Source: a virus (taxonomy: Duplodnaviria > Caudoviricetes). From it: a stretch of DNA of 64,000 nucleotides. How positions within the stretch are numbered: position 1 is the first letter of the stretch; each line of letters opens with the position of its first letter. Below are positions 34,610 through 50,419 of this stretch, piece after piece. The DNA is taken from IMG/VR virus record IMGVR_UViG_3300042361_000498; one strand, written 5' to 3'. The notes under the pieces were generated by a model. It worked only from the letters and a program-made list of their open reading frames with translations. It was not told the origin of the DNA and searched no databases. A program made the translations under genes and the position numbers.

Positions 34610-34981
34610 ATGGAAGATATAGCATCAATGTTTTTTCATAGTAGAACACAAGCTCACCAATTTCATACATTGACAACTGGTGAAGGTTCATACGCAAGAC
34701 ATAAGGCATTAAAAAAATATTACGAAGAAATCGTACCATTGATTGATGGAATTATAGAAGCATATCAGGGTATGTATGGTTTAATTTCTTACAAAAAAGT
34801 TGCAGGTGTTGATAATGATGCTACTAAAGAAAACATATTAAATTATTTTGATGATTTGATTAAGTTTTTGGAAACAAAAAGAAAAGATGAAAAACTACAA
34901 GTAAGTTGGATTCAAAATGAGTTAGATAATTTGGCAAAACTCTTATACTCAACTAAATATAAACTAACTTATTTAGGATAA
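34610..34981 (+). CDS. Ferritin/Dps-like four-helix phage protein
   Basis: HQFH......YARHKAL..YYE...LID...EAYQG. Confidence 0.7.
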   Translation: MEDIASMFFHSRTQAHQFHTLTTGEGSYARHKALKKYYEEIVPLIDGIIEAYQGMYGLISYKKVAGVDNDATKENILNYFDDLIKFLETKRKDEKLQVSWIQNELDNLAKLLYSTKYKLTYLG

Positions 34982-35007: not shown

Positions 35008-35045
35008 AAGGTGTTTGATATTTATATTCGGACACCTTTTTTTAT
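35008..35045 (+). terminator. Terminator whose loop contains ATATTTATA
   Basis: AAGGTGTTTG-ATATTTATATT-CGGACACCTT followed by T-tract. Confidence 0.7.
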
Positions 35046-35102
35046 GTCCTATCAATATGTTACATAGTTAAAAAATTAGACAGGGATTGTACCCTATATT
35101 TT

Positions 35103-35774
35103 ATGAAAAATAATGTAACATCAATTGGTTTAAACGTTAGTGAGTTAGGTACTAACTTTCTATTGTTCATCGTATCTTCTATTGTAGCAATAGGATTATG
35201 TACTCAAGCATATTTTATATATCTTAATGTTTCTGGTAACAACGAAACTGCTAGAAACTTATCAACTAAATTTGATGAGAAGTTTAATGGGTATTACAAA
35301 AACACACCAGGCAACATATTCTATAATGATGATGATACAATATATCATATGGAAGAAAACGAAGTGTGGGTTGACGGTGTAACTAATCAAGTTAAAATTG
35401 GTAAGTTAGCCGGAAATCGTAATTTAGAATTTGGAGTTAAAAACATATTGGAAGAGTATATTCAGGAAACCGGATTTGCTCTAACTGAAAACGCAAGTAA
35501 AAAAATTAAAGTTGAGATAATATATTTAGATGTACTCACAACAAAAAAGAACATATCGGTTTTTCATAGTAATGAAGAAGAGGTAGTTATTCGTTTACGT
35601 GGAATGTTATATAAAGATGGTAAAAAAGTGAAAGATGTTATAGTGGAGGAATCATCATCGGAAGTATCAATGTCAACGCTGATAGTAGACGGTGGTGGTA
35701 AGTTCAATCAAACTTCTTTAAGCAATGCGCTGAAGAAAGGTTCTGGTAAACTTATTACTAAACTATTTCAGTAA
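35103..35774 (+). CDS. Membrane-anchored CsgG-like protein (paralogue of 42085-42804)
   Basis: TM; FGVKNILEEYIQ and KFNQTSLSNALKK match LGVANISMEYLE and KFNQSTIGTSTKK. Confidence 0.55.
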   Translation: MKNNVTSIGLNVSELGTNFLLFIVSSIVAIGLCTQAYFIYLNVSGNNETARNLSTKFDEKFNGYYKNTPGNIFYNDDDTIYHMEENEVWVDGVTNQVKIGKLAGNRNLEFGVKNILEEYIQETGFALTENASKKIKVEIIYLDVLTTKKNISVFHSNEEEVVIRLRGMLYKDGKKVKDVIVEESSSEVSMSTLIVDGGGKFNQTSLSNALKKGSGKLITKLFQ

Positions 35775-37400
35775 ATGAAAAATTTCTTATTGGCTGTGGT
35801 ACTTTCATTGGTATCACTTACATCTTTTGGTCAATTGATTATTAACCAAGAGGTAGTAAACTCAAAACCTTATAGAGTTGGTGATACACTAACTATAAGA
35901 TATAACATTATCAAAGGAACTACAAACCCTAGATACCTTTGGATGCGTTATCAATACTCAAACAAACACTTACAAAAATTAGGTCAAACTGTATTCTCAC
36001 AAGGACAAACTGCTCAAAACTTTGAAGCAACTTGGCCAAATTATATGTTTGGTCAAAATCCTACAATCGGAGTTGGTGAATTGGATAAACAATATGGTTC
36101 AACACCTTGGAACTATACCGCAAACAATGATTGGATAGCAAAGCAATTTACAACCCAAAGAGCGGATGCGGTAATTGATGGATTATGGGCAACTGAAAAG
36201 TATATCTTATTAGAAAATACATCTTATCAAGCAATACACAAATTGGATTTAGCAACTGCAACTGGAACAAACGATGCGGCAATCACACCAATTGGTTCTC
36301 AAGTTCTTCAATTATCATTTGCTACTGGAGATGTAAAATACGTTGCGGCATTTAGAGTAAAAGTTGGGTATCCATCCGGATTTAACCCTACATCATTATC
36401 TGTTTTAATTCAACCATTGAATACAGATGGAACTACTAATTTTACTGCTCCACAAATAGCAAAGAAAGCATTAAACTCAGCAGGAATTGCAGATTTTGAA
36501 CAATTTAACATTGGTGATAAGTTTGGAGTATATATTGTTCCAACTACTGGAGCAGATTACCTAAACAATGTGGTAACTGTTACGGATGCTTATAGAGCAT
36601 TCTTAGCAGTAACCGATGTTGGATTAAATGGAACATCATCAGTATTCCAGTATCCTGCAATTGAAAAGGTGATTGGTAATGTAACAATTGGTGATGGTGA
36701 TTTTAATACAAATGATGCTTATTATTTATTTGCACACATTTTAGGACAAGATGTTGCTTCAAAGGCAAATATAACAAGACAAGCGGCAAATCCATTACAA
36801 TTTATATCGGTAAAACAATCGGCATTTCCAAACTTTGCAGCTGCGGCAACTAACAATTCTGTTACTATTGCATCGGCAAATCAAACAGAATTGTTCTCTT
36901 ATGCGTTTAGTGGTGATTTGGATTTCTCTCACTCATCTAACCCTGGTAACCCAATAACGGCAAATAGTGTAGGTGGACAAGGAACAATGAATAGAACGAT
37001 AGCTAACACAGGTATCTACGCAAATCAAGTTACTAAAACTGCAACATTAAGTTTATCATCTAAAATTGAAAACAACAAAGTTATCCTAAGTGGTAACTTA
37101 ACACAAGAAGGATTGGCAGGTTTGGAAGTTATTTTGAAATACGATGACTCTAAATTAACTTTGGATGGTATTGTATTTGATGCTGGTTCAACTGTAACTA
37201 ACTTCTCAACTAACAAAGATGGTAGATTAACATTTGGTTCTATGGACCAAATTAAAACTGGTAGAATTAAAACTGGTACACCATACAAATTAACTTTCAC
37301 ATCTAATGTTCCTTTAACAAATACCGCTGGTTTATTCTATACTGAATTAGCAGATGCAGTTGATGGAAAAGGAAATAAGATTGGATTAAATGTAGAGTAA
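35775..37400 (+). CDS. Secreted protein with dockerin-like duplicated module and cohesin-like domain
   Basis: Signal peptide; VTVTDAY...GDGDFNTNDAYYLFAHILG...GDLDFSH; LAGLEVILKYDDSKLTL. Confidence 0.65.
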   Translation: MKNFLLAVVLSLVSLTSFGQLIINQEVVNSKPYRVGDTLTIRYNIIKGTTNPRYLWMRYQYSNKHLQKLGQTVFSQGQTAQNFEATWPNYMFGQNPTIGVGELDKQYGSTPWNYTANNDWIAKQFTTQRADAVIDGLWATEKYILLENTSYQAIHKLDLATATGTNDAAITPIGSQVLQLSFATGDVKYVAAFRVKVGYPSGFNPTSLSVLIQPLNTDGTTNFTAPQIAKKALNSAGIADFEQFNIGDKFGVYIVPTTGADYLNNVVTVTDAYRAFLAVTDVGLNGTSSVFQYPAIEKVIGNVTIGDGDFNTNDAYYLFAHILGQDVASKANITRQAANPLQFISVKQSAFPNFAAAATNNSVTIASANQTELFSYAFSGDLDFSHSSNPGNPITANSVGGQGTMNRTIANTGIYANQVTKTATLSLSSKIENNKVILSGNLTQEGLAGLEVILKYDDSKLTLDGIVFDAGSTVTNFSTNKDGRLTFGSMDQIKTGRIKTGTPYKLTFTSNVPLTNTAGLFYTELADAVDGKGNKIGLNVE

Positions 37401-39334
37401 TGAGAAAACTACTTGTTGTAATATTAATATTATTATCCAGTAGTATATCCATAGCACAATCCATTACACAACCGCTCTCTAAAAAGTTTGAATTAAACGT
37501 AAGTGGGCAGGCGTGTAGTGGATTTGTTTTGAATGGGTTTACTTCTACTGATATTTTATTGGCATCAATAGGGTTTATCAATCCACCCGCGGGTACAACA
37601 TTTAACATAACCACAACAACTGGTTTAACACCAGCATCTGGATTTACTTTAACTGGTAATAAAGCTAGATTAGTATTTACAGGTACACAAGCAAACATAA
37701 ATGCAGCATTAGCAACGTTAAGAATAAATACAGGTACAACTGCTGGTAGTGTTCAGATATCGGTATCGGCAACTGTAAATCCACCAGGATATTATTATAA
37801 TCCAATCAATGGACACTTTTATTTACCAGTAACTCCGGGAGCATCTTATACGGCAGCTAGAGCAGCATCTCTATTAACTACATTTAAAGGTCAAACGGGA
37901 TATTTGGTAACGATTACTTCTGCCGATGAAAATGCATTTATATTTGCTAATGTACCACAAGCTAATATATGGTTTGCGGCAACGGATGAAGTTAAAGATG
38001 GAACTTGGGTAATTGATGCTGGGCCTGAAAAGGGAACGATAATGAAAACATCAAATGGACAATTTACAGGAAACGTTTCGGATGTGTATAATAACTGGGC
38101 ACCTGGTGAACCAAATGGAAATAATGGTAGCGAAAATTATGCGGTAACAAATTGGAATGGACAATCAACTTGGAACGATTTATCAAATAATTGGACTAAT
38201 CCATACATAATTGAATATGGAACTTGGACTAACCCTAGTGCACAAACATTTACAAACTTCTTTTCGGCAAACGTAATAAACCCAATAGATGTACCAACCT
38301 CAAAGGTTAATTTTTATTTTGGTGGTGGTATAAATCCAGCACAATGGACAGTAAAAAGCTATACTGCAAATGGTACAACTGCTGTAAGTGCAACTACTGG
38401 TTTAGCTTTGGGAGCAAATGGTAGTGTAAATAACATTAGTGATTTTAACAAAACTAAAACGGATATGGTAATGTACCTATCCAAATTACCATCTACTACA
38501 TTATCTAATTTGTATGGAAGTGTATTAACTGTGGGAGATGCTTATTTAGCATTTCAAGAGTTAGCAAATAGAGGATTAAGTGGAACTGAAAGTAATACTT
38601 TTACAAGTGGAGTACAATTCTTAAACGCAGATGTGGATGGTAATAATATATTTAACGAATTGGATTCATATAGAATATTACAACACGTTATAGGTGGTAC
38701 ACCAATAGTTTCAACTTGGAGTGAAGATAATTTATTTAGGTTAATAAATAAAACTACATTTGATGGGATAACCAAAGCAAATTGGGCAACTATAAATGTA
38801 CCATACAAAGCAAACTATCCATTGGCAGTTGATGCTGGTATAAGTGATTATGTTTATAATGTGGTTGTTGCACCAAAGGGGGATGTAAACCTTTCACATA
38901 CAATAGCACAAAATAGACCGGCAACTCAAAGTACAAATCGTACAATGAATTTAAGTATGCCTATGGAAGTATCAACCTATGTATCAAGCGAAATAGTGGA
39001 TGGTAAGGTAGTAGTAACTATAAAAGTTAATACATTGGGGCAATTGGTAAAAGGGATTCAATTAAAGTTAAACTATGATAGTGATATTTTAAAATATGAA
39101 AATACCGAATATACAACTTCTGGTAATCCTTTAAACTTTTCAAATGATATTGGCAACTGCATAAGTTTTGGTTCTTTAATTTATAATAGTAATGGTTTAT
39201 TAAACAATAATACGGAATACAAATTAACATTTACACCAAAAGAAGTCATAACTAATACAATTGGTTTAACATCAATTGAGGGAATTGATGCGGTGAATGT
39301 GAGTGGTTCAACTCTTAAAATTAAAAACTTATAA
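37400..39334 (+). CDS. Secreted C-type lectin + dockerin-like + cohesin-like protein
   Basis: Signal peptide; NGHFY...GYLVTITSADENAFI...WAPGEPN...WNDL; LTVGDAY...DVDGNNIFNELDSYRILQHVIG...GDVNLSH; GIQLKLNYDSDIL. Confidence 0.75.
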   Translation: MRKLLVVILILLSSSISIAQSITQPLSKKFELNVSGQACSGFVLNGFTSTDILLASIGFINPPAGTTFNITTTTGLTPASGFTLTGNKARLVFTGTQANINAALATLRINTGTTAGSVQISVSATVNPPGYYYNPINGHFYLPVTPGASYTAARAASLLTTFKGQTGYLVTITSADENAFIFANVPQANIWFAATDEVKDGTWVIDAGPEKGTIMKTSNGQFTGNVSDVYNNWAPGEPNGNNGSENYAVTNWNGQSTWNDLSNNWTNPYIIEYGTWTNPSAQTFTNFFSANVINPIDVPTSKVNFYFGGGINPAQWTVKSYTANGTTAVSATTGLALGANGSVNNISDFNKTKTDMVMYLSKLPSTTLSNLYGSVLTVGDAYLAFQELANRGLSGTESNTFTSGVQFLNADVDGNNIFNELDSYRILQHVIGGTPIVSTWSEDNLFRLINKTTFDGITKANWATINVPYKANYPLAVDAGISDYVYNVVVAPKGDVNLSHTIAQNRPATQSTNRTMNLSMPMEVSTYVSSEIVDGKVVVTIKVNTLGQLVKGIQLKLNYDSDILKYENTEYTTSGNPLNFSNDIGNCISFGSLIYNSNGLLNNNTEYKLTFTPKEVITNTIGLTSIEGIDAVNVSGSTLKIKNL

Positions 39335-40233
39335 TGAAAAAGTTTATAATTACTCTTATCTTTATACTTACAGTACAAATGTGGGGATATTCTCAAACTG
39401 TATCAATACCGGATACTATGCAACTATCCGCAAAGGAATTATTTGATGAAAGTGATGATTGGAATGATTTGGGTATATTAGAATCTTATATTGATTTTTC
39501 AAAAGATGTTCTATCATCATCTAATCTATCAGTTGGTATAATTGGAAGGCAAGTATCAACTACTATAAATTTAGGATATAGTAAGTGGTCTAAAAATGGT
39601 ATGTATGGGCATTCATTTTCAACATCAATAAATCCAATATGGAAATACTATGGGTTGGGTTATGGATTTAGTAAAAATACGGATAAAAGAACAACAACTT
39701 TACAATCATTTTATTCAACCGATTTTGATTTTCAAAAAGATATTAACCTTTCATTCATAGATGTTTATAGAACTAAAAAGTGGGGAACATTTGGATATAG
39801 TTTAATAGCATCAAAAACATTTTGGGGTTCTTATGAGGGAGAATGGGAAGGAAAATATACAATAGATTCGGATGGCAACTTTTTAGATTTAATATATCCA
39901 ACTATTCCTGCATCATCTCAATTAACTTATAAAGGAATGTTGATGTACACTTATACATTTAAAACAAAGATGATTGATATATCGCCACAACTATTTGGTA
40001 TGAGTGATGTTTATGTAGATTTTAAAGATGGTACTGAATCTGATTTGGCTTATGTAAATGATTTCAATTTAGACTTGTATTATGGTACATCTTTGGATTG
40101 GAAAATAACTAAGAGATTCGTATTGAATACTAACATTAGATTTAATAAGACTTGGGATAGATTATCCGAATCCGCTGGTTATAAAAAGAGTAACCCAATA
40201 ATGTTTATGATTGGAACAAACTTTCAATTTTAA
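39334..40233 (+). CDS. Outer-membrane beta-barrel protein (paralogue of the 50420 C-terminal domain)
   Basis: Signal peptide; alternating beta strands; terminal FMIGTNFQF. Confidence 0.7.
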   Translation: MKKFIITLIFILTVQMWGYSQTVSIPDTMQLSAKELFDESDDWNDLGILESYIDFSKDVLSSSNLSVGIIGRQVSTTINLGYSKWSKNGMYGHSFSTSINPIWKYYGLGYGFSKNTDKRTTTLQSFYSTDFDFQKDINLSFIDVYRTKKWGTFGYSLIASKTFWGSYEGEWEGKYTIDSDGNFLDLIYPTIPASSQLTYKGMLMYTYTFKTKMIDISPQLFGMSDVYVDFKDGTESDLAYVNDFNLDLYYGTSLDWKITKRFVLNTNIRFNKTWDRLSESAGYKKSNPIMFMIGTNFQF

Positions 40234-40236
40234 GGT

Positions 40237-40581
40237 ATGAAGTGGAGTAAAATTATAATTTGGTGTTGTGTACTTTCTATAATATCTTGTCAAAACGAAG
40301 ATATGGTAGAGCCACAAATAATTGATATTTTTAAGGTAGAGCAATCTATGGTATCAAATAAAAGTGAAATTAGTTTTAATGTGCAAAAGGAAGGGATATA
40401 CATTGTAACTATGGTAGATAAAAATACCAATCAAGTTCTAAGTAGAGAAAAAATAAAATGTATTATAGGTAAAAATAAAATAAAGGTTTATACGAAAACA
40501 ATACCAAGTCAATATTTATATTTGACATTGGAAGATAGTTTTGATAATCAGTTAGGAAAAACAACAATAACAATAAAATAA
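40237..40581 (+). CDS. Lipoprotein resembling a free-standing T9SS C-terminal sorting domain
   Basis: IISC lipobox; G.Y.V.M.D...Q...E...G.N.I...YL.L..D. Confidence 0.5.
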   Translation: MKWSKIIIWCCVLSIISCQNEDMVEPQIIDIFKVEQSMVSNKSEISFNVQKEGIYIVTMVDKNTNQVLSREKIKCIIGKNKIKVYTKTIPSQYLYLTLEDSFDNQLGKTTITIK

Positions 40582-40583
40582 AG

Positions 40584-40955
40584 ATGAAAAAAGTATTAGG
40601 ATTATTAGCAATGATTTGCATAGTTGCAAGTTGTACCAATGAAGATTTGTTAGTACCAACAACAACGGAAGTAACTGAAAAATTACAAATAGTTGGCAAT
40701 ATGGGTATTAAAGTAGAAACTCCATTTGTAAAAAATGAAGTTGCTATGAATGTAAAAGCTGAAACTGCTGGAACATATGTAGTAAAGATATTAAACATAG
40801 CAAACAAATCAGTATCAAAAGAAGAAGTAACTATAAAAGCTGGTAACAATCTATTAAAGATTTATGCAAACGCTTTACCATCTTCAGCATATAGAATTGG
40901 TCTATTCGATTTAGAAGGAAACTTACTTGGGATAGCAGATTTTAACAAGTTATAA
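40584..40955 (+). CDS. Lipoprotein resembling a free-standing T9SS C-terminal sorting domain
   Basis: VASC lipobox; GTYVVKILNIANKSV...AGNN...NALPSSAY...FDLEGNLL. Confidence 0.55.
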   Translation: MKKVLGLLAMICIVASCTNEDLLVPTTTEVTEKLQIVGNMGIKVETPFVKNEVAMNVKAETAGTYVVKILNIANKSVSKEEVTIKAGNNLLKIYANALPSSAYRIGLFDLEGNLLGIADFNKL

Positions 40956-40982
40956 TTAAAACAAATATAAATAAAGAATAAA

Positions 40983-41312
40983 ATGTCAGAGGAAACAGAA
41001 AACTCAGGAGGAGGTTCATTAAAGAGTATTTTAATTGGACTTGCTAGCACAATCGCATTGGGAGTTGGTGGTTATGTAACCAAGCAACTAACAGGTGAAA
41101 AAGATGAACCGGCAGCAGCAACATCAGCACCAGCACCGGTAATTAACATTACTAACTCAAACCAACAATCACAGAGAGCAGCCGGAGGCGGTGGAACTAA
41201 AGTGATTGAGAGAGTAATAGAAAAACCAGCAGCTCAAACTCAACCAGCACCTGCTCCTAAACCAAAGAAAAAAGAAGGAGACGAGTTCAAAGAAGAAAAA
41301 CCTCAATGGTAA
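40983..41312 (+). CDS. Single-TM protein with Pro/Ala-rich tail
   Basis: ILIGLASTIALGVGG; PAPAPKPKK. Confidence 0.65.
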   Translation: MSEETENSGGGSLKSILIGLASTIALGVGGYVTKQLTGEKDEPAAATSAPAPVINITNSNQQSQRAAGGGGTKVIERVIEKPAAQTQPAPAPKPKKKEGDEFKEEKPQW

Positions 41313-41318
41313 TATAAT

Positions 41319-41654
41319 ATGGAGAATCAACAACCTGATGGATTTAAGCAACTCTTAAATCAAATGATGAAACGTAGGTGGTTAATTACATTAATTGTGT
41401 TAATTACTTTTATGTTTACTACATTTGGAATTATGATTTCTATTCATATAGATACGGCTGTTGGACAAGAATGGAAAGAATTATTACTTTTATTATTAGG
41501 GGCATTTATTGGTTCTTATGGTAAAATTATAGATTACTGGTTTTCTGATACTGATAAAGATAAGATGTTAGTTCAGAAAATGGATGAAGAAGATGGAGTA
41601 TCTCTTTCAAATACCGGTGGAGCAGCAGAATCATCGGAAGAAGAATTAGGTTAA
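41319..41654 (+). CDS. Two-TM membrane protein (holin-like)
   Basis: Two TMs; GAFIGSYGKIIDYWF; ends EEELG. Confidence 0.6.
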   Translation: MENQQPDGFKQLLNQMMKRRWLITLIVLITFMFTTFGIMISIHIDTAVGQEWKELLLLLLGAFIGSYGKIIDYWFSDTDKDKMLVQKMDEEDGVSLSNTGGAAESSEEELG

Positions 41655-41728
41655 ATTTTATAATAATAAGTTATACCCAAATACGTTTTAATAATTGGTT
41701 ATATAAAATAACAATTAAATAAAAGATT

Positions 41729-42016
41729 ATGGGATTTTTTAAAGAATTATTCAGCGATGATAACCAAATCAATGAGAAATCAGTAGTTGGATTCGCATCA
41801 TTCGCAGTAATGGTAATATGTATCGCTGTTGATTTAGTGACTGGATATTTGGGAAAAGAATTAGTGATTAACGAATATGTGTTTAACGCATTTCTAACAC
41901 TAACATTAGGTTCATTTGGTATCGGTTCAGTTGATAAGTTTATCAACAAAAAAGCAGAAAACGATAAAGCTAAAATTGAAGCAGATAGTTCAACCGATGA
42001 GGAAGAATTAGGATAG
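41729..42016 (+). CDS. Two-TM membrane protein
   Basis: Two TMs; ends EEELG. Confidence 0.6.
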   Translation: MGFFKELFSDDNQINEKSVVGFASFAVMVICIAVDLVTGYLGKELVINEYVFNAFLTLTLGSFGIGSVDKFINKKAENDKAKIEADSSTDEEELG

Positions 42017-42017
42017 T

Positions 42018-42052
42018 AAAAAAGGGAGAAAGTTTTTTTCTCCCTTTTTTTT
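42018..42052 (+). terminator. Intrinsic terminator directly followed by the late motif
   Basis: AAAGGGAGAAA...TTTCTCCCTTT followed by T-tract. Confidence 0.8.
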
Positions 42053-42084
42053 ATATTTATACATAAACAAAAACAAATTTATGT

Positions 42085-42804
42085 ATGAAAAAATTATTAG
42101 GATTATTAAGTTTATGTTTGTTAAGCAGTGTTGCAATAGGACAAACGGTAGGTAAAACTCAAACGGAAAACTATAAAGCATCGTTTGAAACCAAAGTAGA
42201 CATTAGTGAGTTAATGGATTATGATGGACCTACTATTCCAGTACAAATACTTAAATGTGGAATCAGCGATGAAATTTTGGAACAGTATCCGGAACTTAAA
42301 GAGAAGAAGGTGGGCTTGGGTGTTGCTAATATATCTATGGAATACCTTGAAAATCTCAATCGTTTTACTTTTACTGAAGATAAGACAGAGCTGAAAAACA
42401 GAATGGTGAAGCAATTCCAAGCTTCTCAATCGGGTATCACTCAAGACAAATTAGATGGTAGAGGTAAAATACGTTTAGCGCATTACTTTGTTACAATCGA
42501 AGTATATGATTTCTCCGTTTCCGAAGATGAGACAGTTAATCTAAAAGATGGAGTAAAGAATAAGATGGTTACTCGTCTGGGTTTGCAAGTTCGTTTTACT
42601 GATGCCGAAACTGGTGAAGTATTTGGAGCAAGTGGTTTAGGTGAAGCAACTACAACCAGAGAGTTATCTTTAATATCAGATGCAACAATTGATGATGTTA
42701 AATTTAACCAATCAACAATCGGAACATCTACAAAGAAAGCATTAGATATTGCTTGTAGTAGAATTCTTCTTCGTATGATTAAGAAGGGGAAGTTCCCAAA
42801 ATAA
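42085..42804 (+). CDS. CsgG/HfaB-family-like exported protein
   Basis: Signal peptide; GLGVANI..EYLENLNRF...E; VTIEVYDF; GLQVRFTDAETGEV. Confidence 0.7.
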   Translation: MKKLLGLLSLCLLSSVAIGQTVGKTQTENYKASFETKVDISELMDYDGPTIPVQILKCGISDEILEQYPELKEKKVGLGVANISMEYLENLNRFTFTEDKTELKNRMVKQFQASQSGITQDKLDGRGKIRLAHYFVTIEVYDFSVSEDETVNLKDGVKNKMVTRLGLQVRFTDAETGEVFGASGLGEATTTRELSLISDATIDDVKFNQSTIGTSTKKALDIACSRILLRMIKKGKFPK

Positions 42805-42810
42805 TTTATT

Positions 42811-43551
42811 ATGACAAAAAGAGAAGTAGTATATAATGCTAGTTTAGCAGTATTAGCTTATTCCCAAAAAGAACAAATTAAGTGGAGTGATTATGGGTTA
42901 GAGTTAGTGAAGTGGATTGAGAATAAAAAATCAGATACACAGGGTTTTGTAGCAACAAGAGATAAATCAATCTATGTTGTATGGAGAGGTAGTGAATCAA
43001 AGAAGGATTTCCAAAACGATGCTTCAATTGATAAAGTACCATTCTTAAACGAAGGTGAGAAAGTTCACATTGGATTTAAGAGTTGTTGGGAATCGGTAGT
43101 AGGTGATACCTATGATGCAATTGATATTGCATTAGAAAACCTACAAGGAGAAACTACGGATATTGTAGTTTGTGGACATAGTTTGGGTGGAGCAGTGGCA
43201 ACATTGTATGCACACTCAATTAAAAAACACTATCCACATTACAACATTAAATCCGTAACAATTGGAAGTCCAAGAGTTGGTAACAAAGTATTCAAAGATA
43301 ATTACGATTCGTATGAGATTGATACTTTGAGAGTAGTACATAATAATGATTTGGTAACACATACACCATACATTAGATTTTACCACGTAAACTATCAATT
43401 ACGATTGGATAATAATGGTAATGTATTAAAGAGAGATACATCATTAAACGCATTGTGGTTATACCTAAAAGCATTATTTTCAGGTAAAAATATCAAAGAC
43501 CATATGTGTGATGGATATATGACTGCATTACAAAACTGGGTAGCAAAATAG
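42811..43551 (+). CDS. Class 3 lipase
   Basis: VVWRGS, VHIGF, GHSLGGA, TIGSPRVGN, DLVTHTP, KDHM. Confidence 0.92.
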   Translation: MTKREVVYNASLAVLAYSQKEQIKWSDYGLELVKWIENKKSDTQGFVATRDKSIYVVWRGSESKKDFQNDASIDKVPFLNEGEKVHIGFKSCWESVVGDTYDAIDIALENLQGETTDIVVCGHSLGGAVATLYAHSIKKHYPHYNIKSVTIGSPRVGNKVFKDNYDSYEIDTLRVVHNNDLVTHTPYIRFYHVNYQLRLDNNGNVLKRDTSLNALWLYLKALFSGKNIKDHMCDGYMTALQNWVAK

Positions 43552-43552
43552 T

Positions 43553-43861
43553 ATGTCAACAATAAGGGTTACATTATATGAAGATGAGGAAGTATTAGTG
43601 GAATGTGATTATCTTTTCAATAAAACTAAAATTGCTATGCATATAAGTTTTAATGAGGAAGTATGGTCACATTCTTTTTTTAAACGGATGATGGATATTT
43701 ATGAGGGTATTCTTCAAAACTTTAAGAATGAGGGTTATAACGAAATATACGGAGCACCCCCAAAAGGAAATATTAAAGCAAAGAAGTTAGCACAAATGTT
43801 TGGATTCAAAGATTGGTTTGAAAACAATGAGTTATACTTAATGAGAATGGAAATAAACTAA
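43553..43861 (+). CDS. GNAT-like small protein
   Basis: N.KAKKLAQMFGF terminal GNAT-like motif. Confidence 0.45.
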   Translation: MSTIRVTLYEDEEVLVECDYLFNKTKIAMHISFNEEVWSHSFFKRMMDIYEGILQNFKNEGYNEIYGAPPKGNIKAKKLAQMFGFKDWFENNELYLMRMEIN

Positions 43862-43873
43862 ACAACTAAAATT

Positions 43874-44674
43874 ATGGGAAGCGCTGGAAAAGCAATCGAA
43901 AAGGCATTTGTAGATGCCGGAAATGCAATTAATGATAATGTTATTCAACCAATTGGAAATGCGGTGGTGGATGCGGGTAACGCAATTAATGATGCTGTTA
44001 TTCAACCAATGATTGGTGGTGTTAATACCGCAATTGGTAGTGTAGAAGATGCATACAACTATTCAGTAGCATTTGCTACCGATAGTGCACATAGAGTAGA
44101 AAGTGCAGCTTGTACTATTGCAAGTACTACCGAAGAATTTGCAAAGGTGGGGTTCGATGTGACTCAAAACGAATTTGTTCAATTATCTAAACAAGCTGAA
44201 CAACAAATCGTAGCGGGTGTTGAAATTGTGGCAGCAGGTGCGGTAGCTGCATACAATTGGGCAGATGCAAATGCTTGTACAATTGGAATAACTGCGGCAA
44301 TCTCTATGGGTTGTGTTGCAGCATTTACACCGGCTCAACCTGCTGGAGCAGCAACTTCAACCACATTGTCTTTAATGGCTACACCTGTTCTTTATACGGC
44401 AGATATGGCAGCTAAAATGGCAGTATCAACTGAAATGGGAAAAATAGTTGCTGATGGATTTTTATCAATACCCGGTGTTGGTGGAAATGTTGATACACAA
44501 TTATTAAGAAATGTATGCTCAAATTGTATCTATTATAGTTTAGATTCAGCTGCATTATGGGCAACGCCTGCTGGAGTTGGTATCGCAATCGGAGCTGCAG
44601 TAGCACCAGTTGTTGCATCTTTAGTATGTACTAGAACTTGCCCTAATGGATTTAGTAAAGCATTGGGTGCATAA
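43874..44674 (+). CDS. Ala-rich protein with VDAGNAINDxVIQP duplication and hydrophobic Cys-containing C-terminus
   Basis: Read from translation. Confidence 0.65.
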   Translation: MGSAGKAIEKAFVDAGNAINDNVIQPIGNAVVDAGNAINDAVIQPMIGGVNTAIGSVEDAYNYSVAFATDSAHRVESAACTIASTTEEFAKVGFDVTQNEFVQLSKQAEQQIVAGVEIVAAGAVAAYNWADANACTIGITAAISMGCVAAFTPAQPAGAATSTTLSLMATPVLYTADMAAKMAVSTEMGKIVADGFLSIPGVGGNVDTQLLRNVCSNCIYYSLDSAALWATPAGVGIAIGAAVAPVVASLVCTRTCPNGFSKALGA

Positions 44675-44698
44675 TACAAACTTAACAATTTGTTAATA
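44671..44698 (+). promoter_or_regulatory. Pho-box-like direct repeats
   Basis: ATAATA 44671, TTAACA 44682, TTAATA 44693: 11-bp period. Confidence 0.5.
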
Positions 44699-44758
44699 CT
44701 AAAAGTATAATTTTATTAAGGTAGTTTCCTATATATTGATGAAAATTAAAACATCAAT

Positions 44759-47242
44759 ATGAGGAAACTACTTTTATTATTAACGTTACTAATTCCTACA
44801 ATATCCTTTTCACAAACCTTATCGGGTAAAACAAAATCAAATAAAGAAGAACTCATTGGAGTTACAATTTGGCTAACTAACAAAGATACAAATAAAAAAG
44901 TTGGAAGTACATCTGATATTGAATCCAAATATCAATTCCAAAATGTAGTAGTTGGAAACTATTCAATTAAAGCATCATTTGTTGGATATAAAGAATACAC
45001 AAAAGATATTACAATTAATGGAGATACCAATTTAGATATCCTAATTGAAGAAGATACAAAGGTATTGCAAGAAGTTGTGGTAAAGCAAGTAGCAAAGAAA
45101 GAAACTGCAACTGCACTTATCAATACACTTAAAGCATCTTACATTGTAGCAGATGGTTTATCAATTGAATCAATAAAGAAAACACCAGATAGAACTGTTG
45201 GAGATGCACTTAAAAGAGTTAGTGGTGTAACAATCCAAAACGATAAGTTTGTTTTAGTTAGAGGTTTAGCTGATAGATACAACTTGGCTCTACTAAACAA
45301 ATCAATCCTACCATCAACCGAACCTGATAGAAGAGCATTCTCATTTGATATTATCCCAACATCACTAATAGATAATATCATCATCAACAAAGGAGCATCT
45401 GCAAACCTACCCGGTGATTTCGCAGGAGGTTTAGTACAAATAACAACAAAAGAAGTTAGTGGTGATTTCTTTAATATATCATTGGGGGGCAGTTGGGGTT
45501 CACTATCAACGGGACAGGATTTTAGGTTGGTAGACGCTATACAATTCCCAACATCATTTCCATCAACAAATGGATATAGAATTGCGGGATTAGGTGATAG
45601 AAGAGCATACACTAAACTAATAGGTTCTCCGCAAACCGAAACATCAACATCTATTCCAAACTTAAATGGTAACTTATCATTTGGTGTTGTTAAAAACAAA
45701 TGGAACATCTTATTCAGTTCAACTGCAAGAAACACATACTCTGCCAACACAACTAAAAGAATTGATTACCAATCATCAACTGAATTAGCATACAACTATA
45801 AAGACCAGAACTATTCAAATGTACAATCATTAAATGGATTATTAAATATAGTTTATTTAGGTGAGAATCGTTATAGTTGGAAAACACTTGCTAACTACCA
45901 AAACGAAAAATCATTTTTAAGTAGAGTTGGTGAGAACTACGATAATGTTCAGTATGTAGATAGTAAATCATCCAACTCAATTCAAAAGTTAGTATTCAAT
46001 ACACAATTCGAAGGTAAGTTTAAAACATTTGATTTTAATTTAGGATACAATCTTATGTTAAGAGACCAGCCCGATTATAGAGTAACACCTTACATATCAT
46101 CTTTATATACAACAACTCCTTACTCAATAGCATGGAGAGACACGTATCGTTTTTGGAGTGTAATGGATGAAAACTCATTCAATGGGGGATTGAACAAATC
46201 CATAGGAGATGTTCGTTTAGGAGTGGGTTACTTGAAGAAATTTAGAAACTTCAAAGCAAGAATATTCAGATACGAATCAACTGATTTATTAAATGAGATT
46301 ACAAACAATACTGATAGATATACTGCCGATTTTGATTTGGCAAATGCATATGTGATGTATGAAAAAGAAATTGATAAATTAAAAATAAACACAGGTTTTA
46401 GAACGGAATACAATTTATTTAAAGTTCAAACATCTGATTTTGGTGGACAACGGATTTCAGTAGATAGAGAGTATTTGGATTTACTACCATCATTAAACGC
46501 AACCTATTCTACATCGGAAAAAAAAAAGGTTAGATTATCCGTAAGTAAAACATTAGCAAGACCAGAGTTTAGAGAGGTAGCTAATTTTGCATATTATGAT
46601 TTTGTTAGAAACGCACAACTATTAGGAAATCCAAACTTACAAAAAACGGATATATTCAATTCAGATATAAAGTTTGAGTTGTATCCTAAATCAGGTGAGA
46701 ACATATCAATCGGTTTCTTTGGTAAAAAGTTCTTCAATCCAATTGAGCAAGTTGTAGCAGATGGTTCAGTTCCATCAAACCTTTTACTAACATATAAAAA
46801 CCCAAAAGAAGCATTGGTATATGGAGTTGAGATTGAACTTCGTAAGAAATTAAATGATTGGATAGATTTATATTCAAACACATCGTTTATCAATTCGGAA
46901 GTACAAATCGGTTCAGTAAAAAGACAATTGCAAGGACAATCAAACTATGTAGTAAATGGTGGATTGAACTTACATAAAAACAACAATACATTCAACATAT
47001 CATACAATAGAGTTGGAGATAGAATATCAGCAGTAGGATTTCAAGGATACCCTGATATATTTGAAAACTCTCGTGATGTAGTTGATATTGTTATTCTTCG
47101 TAAAATTAAAAACGGAGAAATTAAATTAGCAGTATCGGATATATTCAGACAACCATTTGAGTATTATCAAAAACCAAATAGAACTTTAATTAAAACAAAC
47201 AACGAAACAACAGTTTCACTAACACTAAATTACAACCTATGA
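44759..47242 (+). CDS. TonB-dependent receptor
   Basis: Signal peptide; TPDRTVGDALKRVSGV...VRGLADRYN...LPSTEPDRRAFSFDIIP; LARPEFRE; terminal LNYNL. Confidence 0.92.
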   Translation: MRKLLLLLTLLIPTISFSQTLSGKTKSNKEELIGVTIWLTNKDTNKKVGSTSDIESKYQFQNVVVGNYSIKASFVGYKEYTKDITINGDTNLDILIEEDTKVLQEVVVKQVAKKETATALINTLKASYIVADGLSIESIKKTPDRTVGDALKRVSGVTIQNDKFVLVRGLADRYNLALLNKSILPSTEPDRRAFSFDIIPTSLIDNIIINKGASANLPGDFAGGLVQITTKEVSGDFFNISLGGSWGSLSTGQDFRLVDAIQFPTSFPSTNGYRIAGLGDRRAYTKLIGSPQTETSTSIPNLNGNLSFGVVKNKWNILFSSTARNTYSANTTKRIDYQSSTELAYNYKDQNYSNVQSLNGLLNIVYLGENRYSWKTLANYQNEKSFLSRVGENYDNVQYVDSKSSNSIQKLVFNTQFEGKFKTFDFNLGYNLMLRDQPDYRVTPYISSLYTTTPYSIAWRDTYRFWSVMDENSFNGGLNKSIGDVRLGVGYLKKFRNFKARIFRYESTDLLNEITNNTDRYTADFDLANAYVMYEKEIDKLKINTGFRTEYNLFKVQTSDFGGQRISVDREYLDLLPSLNATYSTSEKKKVRLSVSKTLARPEFREVANFAYYDFVRNAQLLGNPNLQKTDIFNSDIKFELYPKSGENISIGFFGKKFFNPIEQVVADGSVPSNLLLTYKNPKEALVYGVEIELRKKLNDWIDLYSNTSFINSEVQIGSVKRQLQGQSNYVVNGGLNLHKNNNTFNISYNRVGDRISAVGFQGYPDIFENSRDVVDIVILRKIKNGEIKLAVSDIFRQPFEYYQKPNRTLIKTNNETTVSLTLNYNL

Positions 47243-48441
47243 AAAAATTATTAGTATTGTTCGCAAGTTTAACAATCTTTGGATGTTCTAAAGATTTGGG
47301 TGGAGAAGTTACACCAATCAATGTACCAACCTCAACAACTTTGAGTGGTAATATCACATCAACTACAACTCTTACATCGGATAAAGAGTGGGTATTAAAA
47401 GGATATGTTTATGTAACCGATGGTGCTAAAGTTATCATTCAACCTGGCACAATTATCAAATCTGATATAAGTGAGAAAGGTGCATTGTGTATTGAAAGAG
47501 GAGCACAAATTGTAGCAGAAGGTACTGCATCAAAACCAATCATATTTACATCTGGTAGACCCGCAGGAGAAAGAACTCCCGGTGATTGGGGTGGTATTGT
47601 AATATTGGGTAGAGCAAAAACCAATAGAACATCCGAACCAACTATCGAAGGTGGTATTGGTAGAGCATATGGTGGAACAAACGATTTAGATAATAGTGGT
47701 ATCTTAAAATATGTTCGTATTGAATACGCTGGTATTGCGGCAATGCCAAACTCTGAAATCAACGCATTAACATTGGGTGGTGTTGGTAGTGGAACAATCA
47801 TTGAGAATGTTCAAACTATCTACGCTAACGATGATGCATTTGAGTTCTTTGGTGGAACTGTAAATGCAAAAAACTTATACGCATATGGAACTGCGGATGA
47901 TGATTTTGATTTTGATTTTGGATATAGAGGTAAAGTATCTAATTCAGTTTCTAAAAGAGACCCACAATTTGTAGATAATGGTGATGCAGGAAATGGTGTA
48001 GAGTGTGATAATGATGGTACAGGTTCATCAGCAGAACCATTCACACATCCTATATTAGATGGTGTAATTTTAATTGGACCAAATGATGCAGCATCTTTAC
48101 CAAACCATAATTTAGCAATGAGATGGAGAAGAGCAACTCAATTTGAGGTTTACAATTCTACAATCATTGGATATATGAAAGGTGGGTTCTCAATGGAAAG
48201 TAACGAAACTGCACAATTCTACAAAGATGGTGTAAGTAAATTTCAGAACAACAAAATTGGTTCATTTAATTTATTAAACTTTATCAGTAAAGCAACTACT
48301 ATTATTACATCTGATGCGGTTAAAACAAAGGCGTTGAGTGAGGGTAATACTGAAATAACTTTAACTGCTAGTGAAATAGAAACTTTATCTAAACCAAATT
48401 GGACGAATGGTTGGACAAAATTCCCAACAAAAGGAAATTAA
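47239..48441 (+). CDS. Surface lipoprotein with beta-helix repeats, partner of the TBDR
   Basis: IFGC lipobox; PGDWGGIVILG; SGILKYVRIEYAG; DDAFEFFGG; DDDFDFDFGY. Confidence 0.85.
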   Translation: MKKLLVLFASLTIFGCSKDLGGEVTPINVPTSTTLSGNITSTTTLTSDKEWVLKGYVYVTDGAKVIIQPGTIIKSDISEKGALCIERGAQIVAEGTASKPIIFTSGRPAGERTPGDWGGIVILGRAKTNRTSEPTIEGGIGRAYGGTNDLDNSGILKYVRIEYAGIAAMPNSEINALTLGGVGSGTIIENVQTIYANDDAFEFFGGTVNAKNLYAYGTADDDFDFDFGYRGKVSNSVSKRDPQFVDNGDAGNGVECDNDGTGSSAEPFTHPILDGVILIGPNDAASLPNHNLAMRWRRATQFEVYNSTIIGYMKGGFSMESNETAQFYKDGVSKFQNNKIGSFNLLNFISKATTIITSDAVKTKALSEGNTEITLTASEIETLSKPNWTNGWTKFPTKGN

Positions 48442-48510
48442 ATGATAACAATAATATAACAATAGAAAGAATATAATTGTGATATTTATATATACAAACT
48501 AAACAAATAA

Positions 48511-49551
48511 ATGTCATCCTCAAAAACCCTGTTTATATTAAAAAGAAAACAAAACTATAATCTTTCAACCGATTATAGTATTGGTTTAAGTACCGGCCTG
48601 TACAATTCAGCTCAATTTATGAATCAAATGCTATTAGATGGCGGGTTTGATTCTCAAATGGTAGTTGTAAATGATAATAACGATATAGATAGAGAAGTAA
48701 CTCTACACAAACCAACCCACGTTATTATTGAAGCTCTTTGGGTTGTTCCATCTAAATTCGAAGTTCTTTGCAAATTACATCCAAACGTTAAATGGGTAAT
48801 TCGCTTACATAGCGAAATACCATTTTTAGCAAATGAAGGAATGGCAATGGATTGGATTGGGGAATATAGTAAATTTGATAATATTATTATTTCTTGCAAC
48901 TCACCACAAACTACCAAAGATATTGAGTTTTATATGAGTACAAAATTAGGTATTAAAAAACATATAGATTTTTTACCAAATTTTTATCCACAACAATACA
49001 AAACTAAATCATTCAATAAGAAAGGTGATACGATTCACATAGGATGTTTTGGTGCAATTAGACCTCTAAAAAATCATCTTATACAAGCATTTGCAGCAAT
49101 TAAGTTTGCAGATGAAATTGGTAAAAAATTACATTTCCATATCAATTGCGATAGAGTTGAACAAAAAGGAGAACCAATATTAAATAACTTAATAAGTATG
49201 TTCAATCATTTGGAACATAAAGGTCATAAGTTAGTTCATCATGAGTGGAGTGTTAGAGAGCAATTTATTCAATTATGTTCTACGATGGATATTGGAATTC
49301 AGATATCATTTAATGAAACTTTTAATATTGTAGGAGCTGATATAGTTTCACAAGGAGTTCCTTTGGTATCTTCACCTGAAATCCCTTGGGCTAATTCATT
49401 ATTTACTGCAAGACAAACTAATACTGATGATATTGTAGATTCACTATTATGTACTTACGCATATCCAAAAATAAATGTATTATTAAATCAAAGGGGTCTT
49501 GAAAAATATACAAATAAAACAAAACATATTTGGTTTAAGTTTTTCAAATGA
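48511..49551 (+). CDS. Glycosyltransferase (GT-B, GT4-like)
   Basis: GCFGAIRPLKNHL; SFNETFNIVGAD. Confidence 0.7.
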   Translation: MSSSKTLFILKRKQNYNLSTDYSIGLSTGLYNSAQFMNQMLLDGGFDSQMVVVNDNNDIDREVTLHKPTHVIIEALWVVPSKFEVLCKLHPNVKWVIRLHSEIPFLANEGMAMDWIGEYSKFDNIIISCNSPQTTKDIEFYMSTKLGIKKHIDFLPNFYPQQYKTKSFNKKGDTIHIGCFGAIRPLKNHLIQAFAAIKFADEIGKKLHFHINCDRVEQKGEPILNNLISMFNHLEHKGHKLVHHEWSVREQFIQLCSTMDIGIQISFNETFNIVGADIVSQGVPLVSSPEIPWANSLFTARQTNTDDIVDSLLCTYAYPKINVLLNQRGLEKYTNKTKHIWFKFFK

Positions 49552-49579
49552 TATTTATAGTTATAAAATAATTATAGCT

Positions 49580-50389
49580 ATGAAACAAATATTATTATTT
49601 TTTTTGTTATTACCAACATTATTGTTAGGGCAGATATCCTCTTGGAGAAGTGGTGCAACAACCGCACCACAACAAAGGAGTAGTGTAAATGTACCATCCA
49701 ATAGAGAATACTCACAACCAAATCGTAATGATAATGTGAGTAGATGGAGAAGTACACCACAATATAGGCAATATCCAAACACACCATATTTTCGTAATAG
49801 AGAAGTTTGGGTAGGTGGGATGTACCCTTGGTTTAATGGATTTGGATATTACAATATGTATCCATATTATTTCTATGATGATTTTGGATATAGACAAAGA
49901 GGTAGAGTTCGTATCTATAACGATGGTAAGAGGGATACTATAAGTGTTAAACCAATGCGTTGGGCATTTGGTTTACAAACATCAAAAGGTAATCAAATTG
50001 GTGGTTGGTTGGCAATAGGACATGTAAACTATGTCTTATTAGAATACCAGCAAACAAATCAAATACATTCAGCATCTTATTTCCCACTTGGACATTTAGG
50101 TATTGTTGATTTTCCATTAGTAGAAGATTGGATATCTAACAAAGTATTCTACGCAGGTATTGGTAAGAGGTATGGTAGAAACGGAATGCACATATCTTTG
50201 GGTTTGGGAAATGAAGAAGTAAGATTTCAGGGAAAAGATAAAATAGGATACATAACATTCCCAAAATATAATTCGGACTTTATGACAATGAAATTTGGTA
50301 TAATACACGACTTCAAATATGTTACTCTTAAATTAGATTATGACCCTATACGAAGAAATGGTATTGTTGGGGCTGGTATAAATCTGTAA
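49580..50389 (+). CDS. Exported protein with Arg/Tyr-rich N-terminus and C-terminal beta-barrel
   Basis: ATG 49580 after the late motif; signal peptide; terminal GAGINL. Confidence 0.65.
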   Translation: MKQILLFFLLLPTLLLGQISSWRSGATTAPQQRSSVNVPSNREYSQPNRNDNVSRWRSTPQYRQYPNTPYFRNREVWVGGMYPWFNGFGYYNMYPYYFYDDFGYRQRGRVRIYNDGKRDTISVKPMRWAFGLQTSKGNQIGGWLAIGHVNYVLLEYQQTNQIHSASYFPLGHLGIVDFPLVEDWISNKVFYAGIGKRYGRNGMHISLGLGNEEVRFQGKDKIGYITFPKYNSDFMTMKFGIIHDFKYVTLKLDYDPIRRNGIVGAGINL

Positions 50390-50419
50390 GTTACACTTTT
50401 TAATCAAAACAGCATATGA

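Follow-up and report, generated by a model that had tools for sequence, protein, structure and literature searches.

The viral DNA analysed here, a window of 64,000 nucleotides (nt) within the 133-kb, ~70% complete IMG/VR virus record IMGVR_UViG_3300042361_000498, carries a block of genes for envelope proteins that is conserved and widespread among lake-water T4-like myophages of Bacteroidota. The record itself is T4-like by its features: RNA ligase, helicase, thymidylate synthase and baseplate wedge. The core of the block is g01, a gene for a g02-type secreted protein, g07, g08, g10 and d8. Our preferred, still tentative reading is that the core products function together as an envelope platform which would place lectin- and cohesin-bearing proteins on the surface of the infected cell.

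An earlier note on this DNA, made from the sequence alone, had described ten tightly packed genes on one strand with export or membrane signals. This description holds: the open reading frames (ORFs) g01-g10 occupy 35103-42804, all on the plus strand and with gaps of -1 to 74 nt, and all ten products bear a signal peptide, a lipobox or a transmembrane (TM) helix. Export or membrane signals are also present on d4, d5, d7 and d8. Many of the signal peptides are followed by Gln (g02, g03, g04 and g10), and the lipoprotein Cys by acidic residues. The ten genes are most of the module, which extends over 35103-52024; the coordinates 35103-42804 are too narrow because the core gene d8 sits well beyond them. 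The core genes, together with g03, are as follows.

35103-35774, plus strand: g01, with an N-terminal TM anchor, a linker and a periplasmic domain (~residues 83-223) modelled with a CsgG/PelC/LptE/TraT-type alpha/beta core.
35775-37400, plus strand: g02, a secreted protein of 541 residues whose signal peptide ends in FGQ; a segment of EF-hand type, with GDGDF at 306, is dockerin-like, and the C-terminal domain resembles cohesin.
37400-39334, plus strand: g03, a secreted protein of 644 residues that combines a C-type lectin domain (~residues 143-280), a dockerin-like loop with DVDGN at 411, and a C-terminus resembling cohesin.
40983-41312, plus strand: g07, with one TM helix, a Pro/Ala-rich periplasmic arm and the near-invariant C-terminal peptide KKKEGDEFKE..P.W.
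41319-41654, plus strand: g08, 111 residues, a predicted two-TM inner-membrane protein with an acidic tail ending EEELG.
42085-42804, plus strand: g10, a divergent CsgG-family protein with a signal-peptidase-I type signal (AIG/QT), the most conserved gene of the module.
50420-52024, plus strand: d8, with a signal peptide, a small Cys-containing N-domain, a low-complexity Ala/Ser/Pro/Lys/Glu linker of ~230 residues and a barrel-like C-terminal domain.

Synteny was counted in 80 fetched IMG/VR loci (81 loci in all, many of them cut by contig ends); 526 contigs carry a g10 relative. The fetched loci keep g01, g02/g03, (g04, g05, g06), g07, g08, (g09) and g10 in this order on a single strand, usually with d8 after g10. 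The core genes are found in most of the 81 loci (g01 in 65, g02 in 68, g07 in 73, g08 in 67 and d8 in 70), and the accessory genes in fewer: g04 in 22, g05 in 39, g06 in 40, g09 in 44, a TonB-dependent receptor (TBDR) in 19 and a lipase in 18. Co-conservation, which the earlier note had left as a point to be checked, is strong in these loci and extends to two further phages. Immutovirus (Flavobacterium phage immuto), the only cultured relative found (host Flavobacterium sp. LMO8), has the set imm13-19, which comprises a lectin protein, an unknown protein, a cohesin protein with a tail, g07 (imm16), g10, a d8-like protein (imm18, likened to d8 by position and layout only) and a g01-like protein. 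Locus L099, whose g10 is 37% identical, encodes a large secreted protein, g08, a secreted nuclease-like protein, a small one-TM protein in the position of g07, g10, a d8-like protein and a g01-like protein.

The module is also present on contigs filed under Sediminibacterium, Flavobacterium and 'uncultured Bacteroidetes' metagenome-assembled genomes (MAGs). Three of these, designated L083, L084 and L085, are probably phage contigs binned with their hosts and therefore hint at host range: two, of 112 kb and 254 kb, are filed under Sediminibacterium and 'uncultured Bacteroidetes' MAGs, and the third, of 2.6 kb, under a Flavobacterium MAG. In 17 lake-water metagenome runs, which belong to 17 studies, contigs contain the stretch nearly complete; two metatranscriptome runs contain only 7% of its sequence words.

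The g10 family is large, with 526 relatives in IMG/VR, 6154 protein clusters at 90% identity and 220 representatives at 50% identity. The Pfam CsgG model (PF03783) gives no match to g10 itself; it is matched by 17 of 38 diverse homologues (best 1.9e-17), and LpoB by 8 of the 38. Compared with the PDB, the family profile finds CsgG with an E value of 1e-5. The AlphaFold2 (AF2) model of g10, with a predicted local distance difference test score (pLDDT) of 85, has CsgG structures 4uv2 and 4uv3 as its top Foldseek matches (E 1e-6) and displays VIA Z scores of 11.1-12.2 to CsgG (151-171 residues, root-mean-square deviation 3.3-4.0), 9.9 to PelC and ~8 to LptE, with long beta-hairpin extensions predicted. 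By profile and modelled fold, g10 is a distant, divergent member of the CsgG family. The claim that g10 and g01 are CsgG-like stands, in that both model as CsgG-like folds.

E. coli CsgG was added to the g10 family alignment for comparison of the hairpins and the constriction loop. The constriction-loop Tyr-Pro of CsgG aligns with Y68-P69 of g10, a near-invariant pair (P69 occurs in at least 90% of the family), and the constriction residues Asn55 and Phe56 are replaced. In CsgG, the hairpins that build the 36-strand barrel are reportedly of 21 (TM1) and 25 (TM2) residues, in the residue numbers of Goyal et al. 2014. The TM1-equivalent of g10 has 15-16 residues versus 21, and is reduced to 8 in some homologues; of 20 residues, 7 carry a charge and one is aromatic, compared to 3 of 21 charged and three aromatic in CsgG. 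The TM2-equivalent is ~19 residues long versus 25, with 6 of 19 charged and one aromatic, and is modelled as a strand plus coil. Neither g10 nor its closest phage relatives have a lipobox Cys, while most of the distant homologues have a G-C pair. The curli partners CsgE, CsgF and curlin (PF10627, PF10614 and PF07012) were not found in the 133-kb, ~70% complete record. In lipid anchor, hairpin length and partners, g10 therefore departs from three features that define the curli channel, and a ring or scaffold is its more probable role than a pore of curli type.

The relatives of g01 come in two forms, one of ~215 residues with a TM anchor and one of ~160 residues with a plain signal peptide (alignment A2); g01 and its relatives have no lipobox and are not lipoproteins. 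The AF2 model of g01 (pLDDT 79) gives Foldseek E values of 1e-6 to 1e-5 to Cj1090c, LptE and PelC, and the VIA Z scores of its domain are tied between CsgG (12.5), PelC (12.0), FlgT (11.9), Cj1090c (11.8) and LptE (11.5), with TraT at 10.2. Among family models the sole match was to PF03923, a weak one at 20 bits versus a cut-off of 25. As modelled, g01 has the shared core fold of outer-membrane ring and plug proteins, and this fold singles out no one family.

From the string pairs FGVKNILEEY/LGVANISMEY and KFNQTSL/KFNQSTI, g01 and g10 had been called paralogues. The strings are present, and lie at equivalent places in the two AF2 models (at the start of helix 1 and just before the last helix), which show the same order of elements. 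However, BLASTP between the two proteins gives a non-significant E value of 1.3, and hhalign of the family profiles yields an alignment of just 24 columns around the first motif, with a probability of 5.6% and an E value of 0.007. Because neither BLASTP nor hhalign gives sequence support, a common origin is possible as suggested by the modelled fold only. Clear paralogue pairs are g02/g03 in their C-terminal halves (E 1e-15), g05/g06 (E 4e-13), g08/g09 (E 7e-5), and g04 with the C-terminus of d8 (BLASTP E 2e-6). The accessory genes among these are as follows.

39334-40233, plus strand: g04, an outer-membrane beta-barrel candidate with a signal peptide and the C-terminus ...NFQF, a short paralogue of the d8 barrel.
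40237-40581, plus strand: g05, a small lipoprotein with a small beta-sandwich, whose lipobox Cys is followed by QNED/TNED (g05/g06).
40584-40955, plus strand: g06, a small lipoprotein with a small beta-sandwich, paralogue of g05.
41729-42016, plus strand: g09, a paralogue of g08 and likewise a predicted two-TM inner-membrane protein with an acidic tail ending EEELG.

The layout of d8 is autotransporter-like, and its C-terminal domain is paralogous to g04. The barrel claimed earlier has the features of one, g04 scoring 0.93-0.94 in Atlas language-model features to autotransporter, OMP_b-brl and DUF6850 clusters and ending in Phe, but d8 and g04 match no Pfam or PDB family, LptD and PelB families included. 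Pfam and PDB profile matches of d8 and g04 to Cwf15, CDC27 and TCERG1 were rejected as low-complexity artefacts.

On the inner-membrane side, the C-terminal peptide of g07 (KKKEGDEFKEEAPKW) has the near-invariance typical of a docking partner. The proteins g08 and g09 each show a hydrophobic stretch, read from the sequence as two TM helices. Most g08 homologues have ~180-235 residues and a cytoplasmic Cys-rich tail (C.H...DGDG..ECLKCG); the g08 of the window is without this tail and therefore represents a truncated form in this lineage.

The putative payload of the module is formed by g02 and g03, which have in common a region of EF-hand-like dockerin loops and an end resembling cohesin. By profile, g03 carries a C-type lectin domain: PF00059 is matched with 24.6 bits versus a cut-off of 22.6, surfactant protein D is found in the PDB with E 1e-4, and the calcium/sugar motifs EPN (237) and WND (258) are both invariant in the family alignment (A4). 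The canonical C-type lectin disulfides are absent from g03. The lectin part of the earlier claim of a lectin-bearing cohesin/dockerin cargo is thereby supported, and the cohesin-like and dockerin-like modules of g02 and g03 are seen at sub-threshold level: neither protein itself matches Pfam Cohesin (PF00963) or dockerin (PF00404), Cohesin is matched by 5 of 15 g02 homologues at 14-23 bits versus a cut-off of 24.1, and Dockerin_1 is weakly matched by one g03 homologue (E 0.03). Among members of Atlas sister clusters, all of them viral, the shares with Cohesin, Dockerin_1 and Por_Secre_tail are 11-93%, 28% and 54-72%, respectively. A PDB search with the g02 family profile retrieved no cohesin. 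A PHROGs library search gave nothing useful for any module gene, with no holin, spanin or endolysin match, and an NCBIfam scan of the module genes gave nothing above cut-offs.

In some relatives the g02-type protein has ~630 residues and ends in a sorting domain of the type IX secretion system (T9SS), as in locus L061 (PF18962, 32 bits versus a cut-off of 27); in the cohesin protein of Immutovirus (imm15) a T9SS-type tail was detected with a home-made hidden Markov model (HMM). This implies that the payload of these relatives is exported by the host T9SS. In the window, neither g02 nor g03 has the sorting domain PF18962. Counted with the home-made HMM, 19 loci have a payload with a sorting domain, 29 have the g05/g06 lipoproteins, 17 have neither and none has both. 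The QNED/TNED that follows the lipobox Cys of g05/g06 resembles the Bacteroidota surface-export signal. Members of the g05/g06 family give sub-threshold matches to DUF3244 (10 of 23) and Por_Secre_tail (5 of 23), and g06 itself reaches 20.1 bits to PF18962 (cut-off 27).

The earlier note had placed late motifs at 35018 and 42053. The element ATATTTATA is indeed present at both sites, and is a plausible phage promoter candidate, resembling an AT-swapped T4 late box; a 'late' timing is plausible as well. Two hairpins accompany it.

35008-35046, plus strand: terminator-like hairpin that follows the upstream gene and holds ATATTTATA (35018-35026) in its loop, at the start of the g01-g09 unit.
42018-42050, plus strand: intrinsic-terminator-like hairpin of 15 pairs plus a T run, with ATATTTATA (42053, element to 42061) directly after it.
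27870, 28489, 35018, 42053, 48482, 49551, 53794 and 58917: example sites of ATATTTATA.

The second hairpin lies between g09 and g10, which therefore forms its own transcription unit, with ATATTTATA 24 nt upstream of its start. In the window the element was observed 13 times versus 5.4 expected, 12 of the 13 on the plus strand, mostly ~5-35 nt upstream of start codons, including those of genes adjoining baseplate genes; besides g10 it precedes d6 and d7. In 13 of 57 distinct relatives TATTTATA stands 17-34 nt upstream of g10, and in a fourteenth at -115, against a background of 2.5% of 120-nt windows with the motif.

In the platform that we favour, host Sec and Lol signals would carry every module product out of the cytoplasm. 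At the outer membrane g01, g10 and d8 would assemble, tied to the inner membrane by g07 and g08, and this assembly would hold g02 and g03 on the cell surface or help to place them there. In relatives, g02-type proteins presumably cross the outer membrane through the host T9SS; in this phage, where g02 and g03 are without the T9SS tail, the likely surface lipoproteins g05 and g06 occur instead. Once on the surface, the g03 lectin would bind glycans, and the cohesin/dockerin modules would link the proteins to each other. The purpose, as we infer it, may be an altered infected-cell surface, through receptor masking or phage exclusion, through less sticking of progeny to debris, or through cell-cell adhesion. 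A role in phage exclusion could be likened to that of TraT, the LptE-fold ring of plasmids.

Several points weigh against this platform. Its assembly, location and phenotype are predictions from sequence and models. Exclusion genes are usually made early, and ATATTTATA stands upstream of structural-region genes as well. Accessory content is highly variable between phages, as in a plasticity island. The cohesin and dockerin matches fall below Pfam cut-offs, with no PDB cohesin found. The counts of sorting-domain payloads versus g05/g06 are phylogenetically non-independent, and their exclusivity possibly reflects as few as two clades. The bacterial relatives of g10 (31-38% identity) stand alone, without other module genes beside them and with no Pfam family among their neighbours, and therefore give no functional hint. 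A more far-reaching proposal is that the core is a new phage-encoded trans-envelope machine, in which a CsgG-like ring, an LptE-like plug, an autotransporter-like barrel and an inner-membrane tether export or anchor a self-linking, calcium-dependent lectin scaffold. This seems unlikely to us; if true, it would change how an infected Bacteroidota cell meets other phages, cells and particles.

The earlier note had concluded that the phage builds its own export apparatus. On this reading, g10, perhaps with g01, would be a true curli-type outer-membrane channel through which the phage exports the lectin/cohesin cargo. That g10 has CsgG as its nearest match by profile (E 1e-5) and by fold (Z 11-12, higher than for PelC and LptE), that Tyr-Pro of the CsgG constriction aligns with Y68-P69, that long beta-hairpin extensions are modelled, and that g02 and g03 here are without a T9SS tail, so that another outer-membrane route is needed, would all fit such a pore. 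Nevertheless, we consider it distinctly unlikely. The missing lipobox Cys matters, since unlipidated E. coli CsgG stays a soluble pre-pore (4uv2 is so titled), and the hairpins of g10 are short, charged and aromatic-poor, the second being a strand plus coil, with Asn55/Phe56 lost. CsgE, CsgF and curlin were not found in the record, and the payload of relatives bears a T9SS sorting domain. Furthermore, the CsgG pore passes unfolded chains, and is ill-suited to multi-domain proteins of 540-640 residues that must refold and bind calcium outside. The claim of a phage-owned export apparatus is weakened accordingly, and the module is probably not a phage-built curli-type secretion pore. We also doubt that there is no single system at all, only a plasticity island that separates the replication module from the structural one and gathers independent envelope-acting accessory genes such as exclusion lipoproteins, a nutrient receptor, a lipase and adhesins. 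The genes g04, g05/g06 and g09, the lipase, the TBDR pair and d3 do come, go and shift place between loci, the block has at least two transcription units, and the 'curli' cluster of pelagimyophages likewise occupies a hypervariable stretch between the modules for replication and structure (PMC7029224). Yet the six-gene core stays together down to 37-52% g10 identity, even when rearranged to g10-d8-g01, and the invariant C-terminal peptide of g07 looks like that of a docking partner.

A lysis or egress module would make g08/g09 holin-like, g07 plus the lipoproteins spanin-like, the CsgG-like protein a gated pore that times lysis, and the lipase an enzyme acting on the outer membrane. The two TM helices and charged tails of g08/g09, the inner-membrane location and periplasm-spanning arm of g07, the sharing of ATATTTATA with structural-region genes and the lipase directly after g10 are consistent with this, and a lysis-timing role has been proposed for the CsgG of phage Melnitz (PMC9004378). 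It is nonetheless quite improbable: with ~200 residues and a Cys-rich tail in the cytoplasm, most g08 homologues differ from holins; neither the TBDR nor the large lectin/cohesin proteins find a place in it; an annotated glucosaminidase of Immutovirus lies ~6 kb past the end of the module; and PHROGs gave no holin, spanin or endolysin match. Endolysin families PF01832, PF00959 and PF01510 were not found in the ~70% complete record. That the products are ordinary virion parts, e.g. fibre or decoration proteins with lectin and Ig-like domains, is highly improbable. Phage fibres and capsid decoration often contain lectin and beta-sandwich domains, and the block is placed before baseplate genes, but Sec signals, lipoboxes and TM helices would take all products out of the cytoplasm, where tailed virions assemble, and CsgG/LptE folds, barrels and a TBDR are envelope proteins.

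Virulent phages add single proteins to the host envelope, such as exclusion lipoproteins and Lom/Bor. To our knowledge, a conserved phage set of at least six genes reaching the inner membrane, periplasm, outer membrane and surface is undescribed, and a literature search on phage CsgG with lipoproteins, phage TBDRs, and cohesin, dockerin or T9SS in phages found no paper describing the module. It would be incorrect to say that no phage system with CsgG had been described, as csgG/csgF clusters, of unknown function, are carried by pelagimyophages (HTVC008M group; PMC7029224) and by the Methylophilales phage Melnitz (PMC9004378). There, as here, a CsgG-superfamily gene is found in aquatic T4-like myophages, between replication and structural modules and without curlin subunits. 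Unlike g10, the CsgG of HTVC008M is a lipoprotein of the canonical kind, with hairpins of full length and 40% identity to its E. coli counterpart, and is paired with CsgF. Partners of lectin, cohesin, LptE-fold, barrel or lipoprotein type are absent from the HTVC008M cluster. Profiles of g10, g01, g02, g05/g06 and d8, and BLASTP of every window protein, gave no match in the eight HTVC008M cluster proteins tested. The pelagimyophage csgG/csgF cluster is the closest precedent, unrelated in detail.

Among bacterial systems, E. coli CsgG (type VIII secretion; PDB codes 4uv3 and 6si7) shares the core fold, the C-terminal helix, the profile match and the Tyr-Pro with g10, and differs in its lipid anchor, longer hairpins, Asn55/Phe56 and its partners CsgE, CsgF, CsgA and CsgB. 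LptE-LptD and PelC-PelB are plug/ring-and-barrel pairs, which resemble the module in the fold of g01 (Z 11.5-12.0) and in that g01 is encoded beside d8 and g10 in Immutovirus and L099; unlike in these pairs, d8 and g04 match no LptD or PelB family, g01 is not a lipoprotein, and no lipopolysaccharide or Pel genes are present. The cohesin-dockerin pairs of cellulosomes and the T9SS cargo of Bacteroidota have a likeness in the cohesin-like and dockerin-like modules and, in relatives, in a type A T9SS sorting domain on the same protein. They differ from the module in that both modules here lie in one protein, without enzymes, with a C-type lectin as payload, with sub-threshold matches, and with no sorting domain on the window proteins. 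TraT of F-like plasmids is a surface-exclusion lipoprotein that forms a decameric outer-membrane ring with an LptE-like core (PMC12658005). Like g01 and g10 (VIA Z 10.2 and 6.6, respectively) it is an envelope protein encoded on a mobile element, and the alpha/beta core and a long beta-hairpin are common to all three, but it has two TM helices plus a lipid anchor and no sequence relation to them, and it acts alone, not as part of a multi-gene set.

The module would be a second occurrence, independent of the first, of CsgG-superfamily proteins in aquatic myophages; what the first one does has been called a mystery (PMC7029224). With 526 IMG/VR contigs and 6154 protein clusters the family is abundant. 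Since Immutovirus, a cultured member, grows on Flavobacterium sp. LMO8, the question is directly testable.

Between g10 and d8, the window holds further genes, those within 42811-48441 being accessory inserts whose positions vary between loci.

42811-43551, plus strand: class-3 lipase (PF01764, E 3e-30) directly after g10, without a signal peptide.
Within 42811-48441, plus strand: a small ORF.
43874-44674, plus strand: an Ala/Gly-rich membrane protein of 266 residues with repeated NAINDNVIQP segments and hydrophobic stretches, of no family, found inside the module in some relatives.
44759-47242, plus strand: a full-length TBDR with CarboxypepD_reg, Plug and barrel domains, overlapping the following lipoprotein gene.
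47239-48441, plus strand: a lipoprotein of 400 residues, paired with the TBDR.

The TBDR pair, the lipase and d3 are sometimes inside the block in other loci: the pair lies between g07 and g10 in some relatives (L030 and L074), and the lipase, where present, is sometimes before g10. The signal-peptide protein d7 (49586-50389), rich in Tyr, Arg, Asn and Gly and found in 17 of 81 loci, has a ATATTTATA-type motif 26 nt upstream and could be another outer-membrane protein. The module of the window is without a nuclease-like protein; a signal-peptide protein of this kind lies inside or beside the module in Immutovirus (immuto_12, L001 8002-8580, annotated as endonuclease G) and in L099 (6836-7420). 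Just upstream of the module, 34610-34981 encodes a DUF5856 protein (E 1e-17), which ends in ...TYLG, where g08 and g09 end in EEELG.

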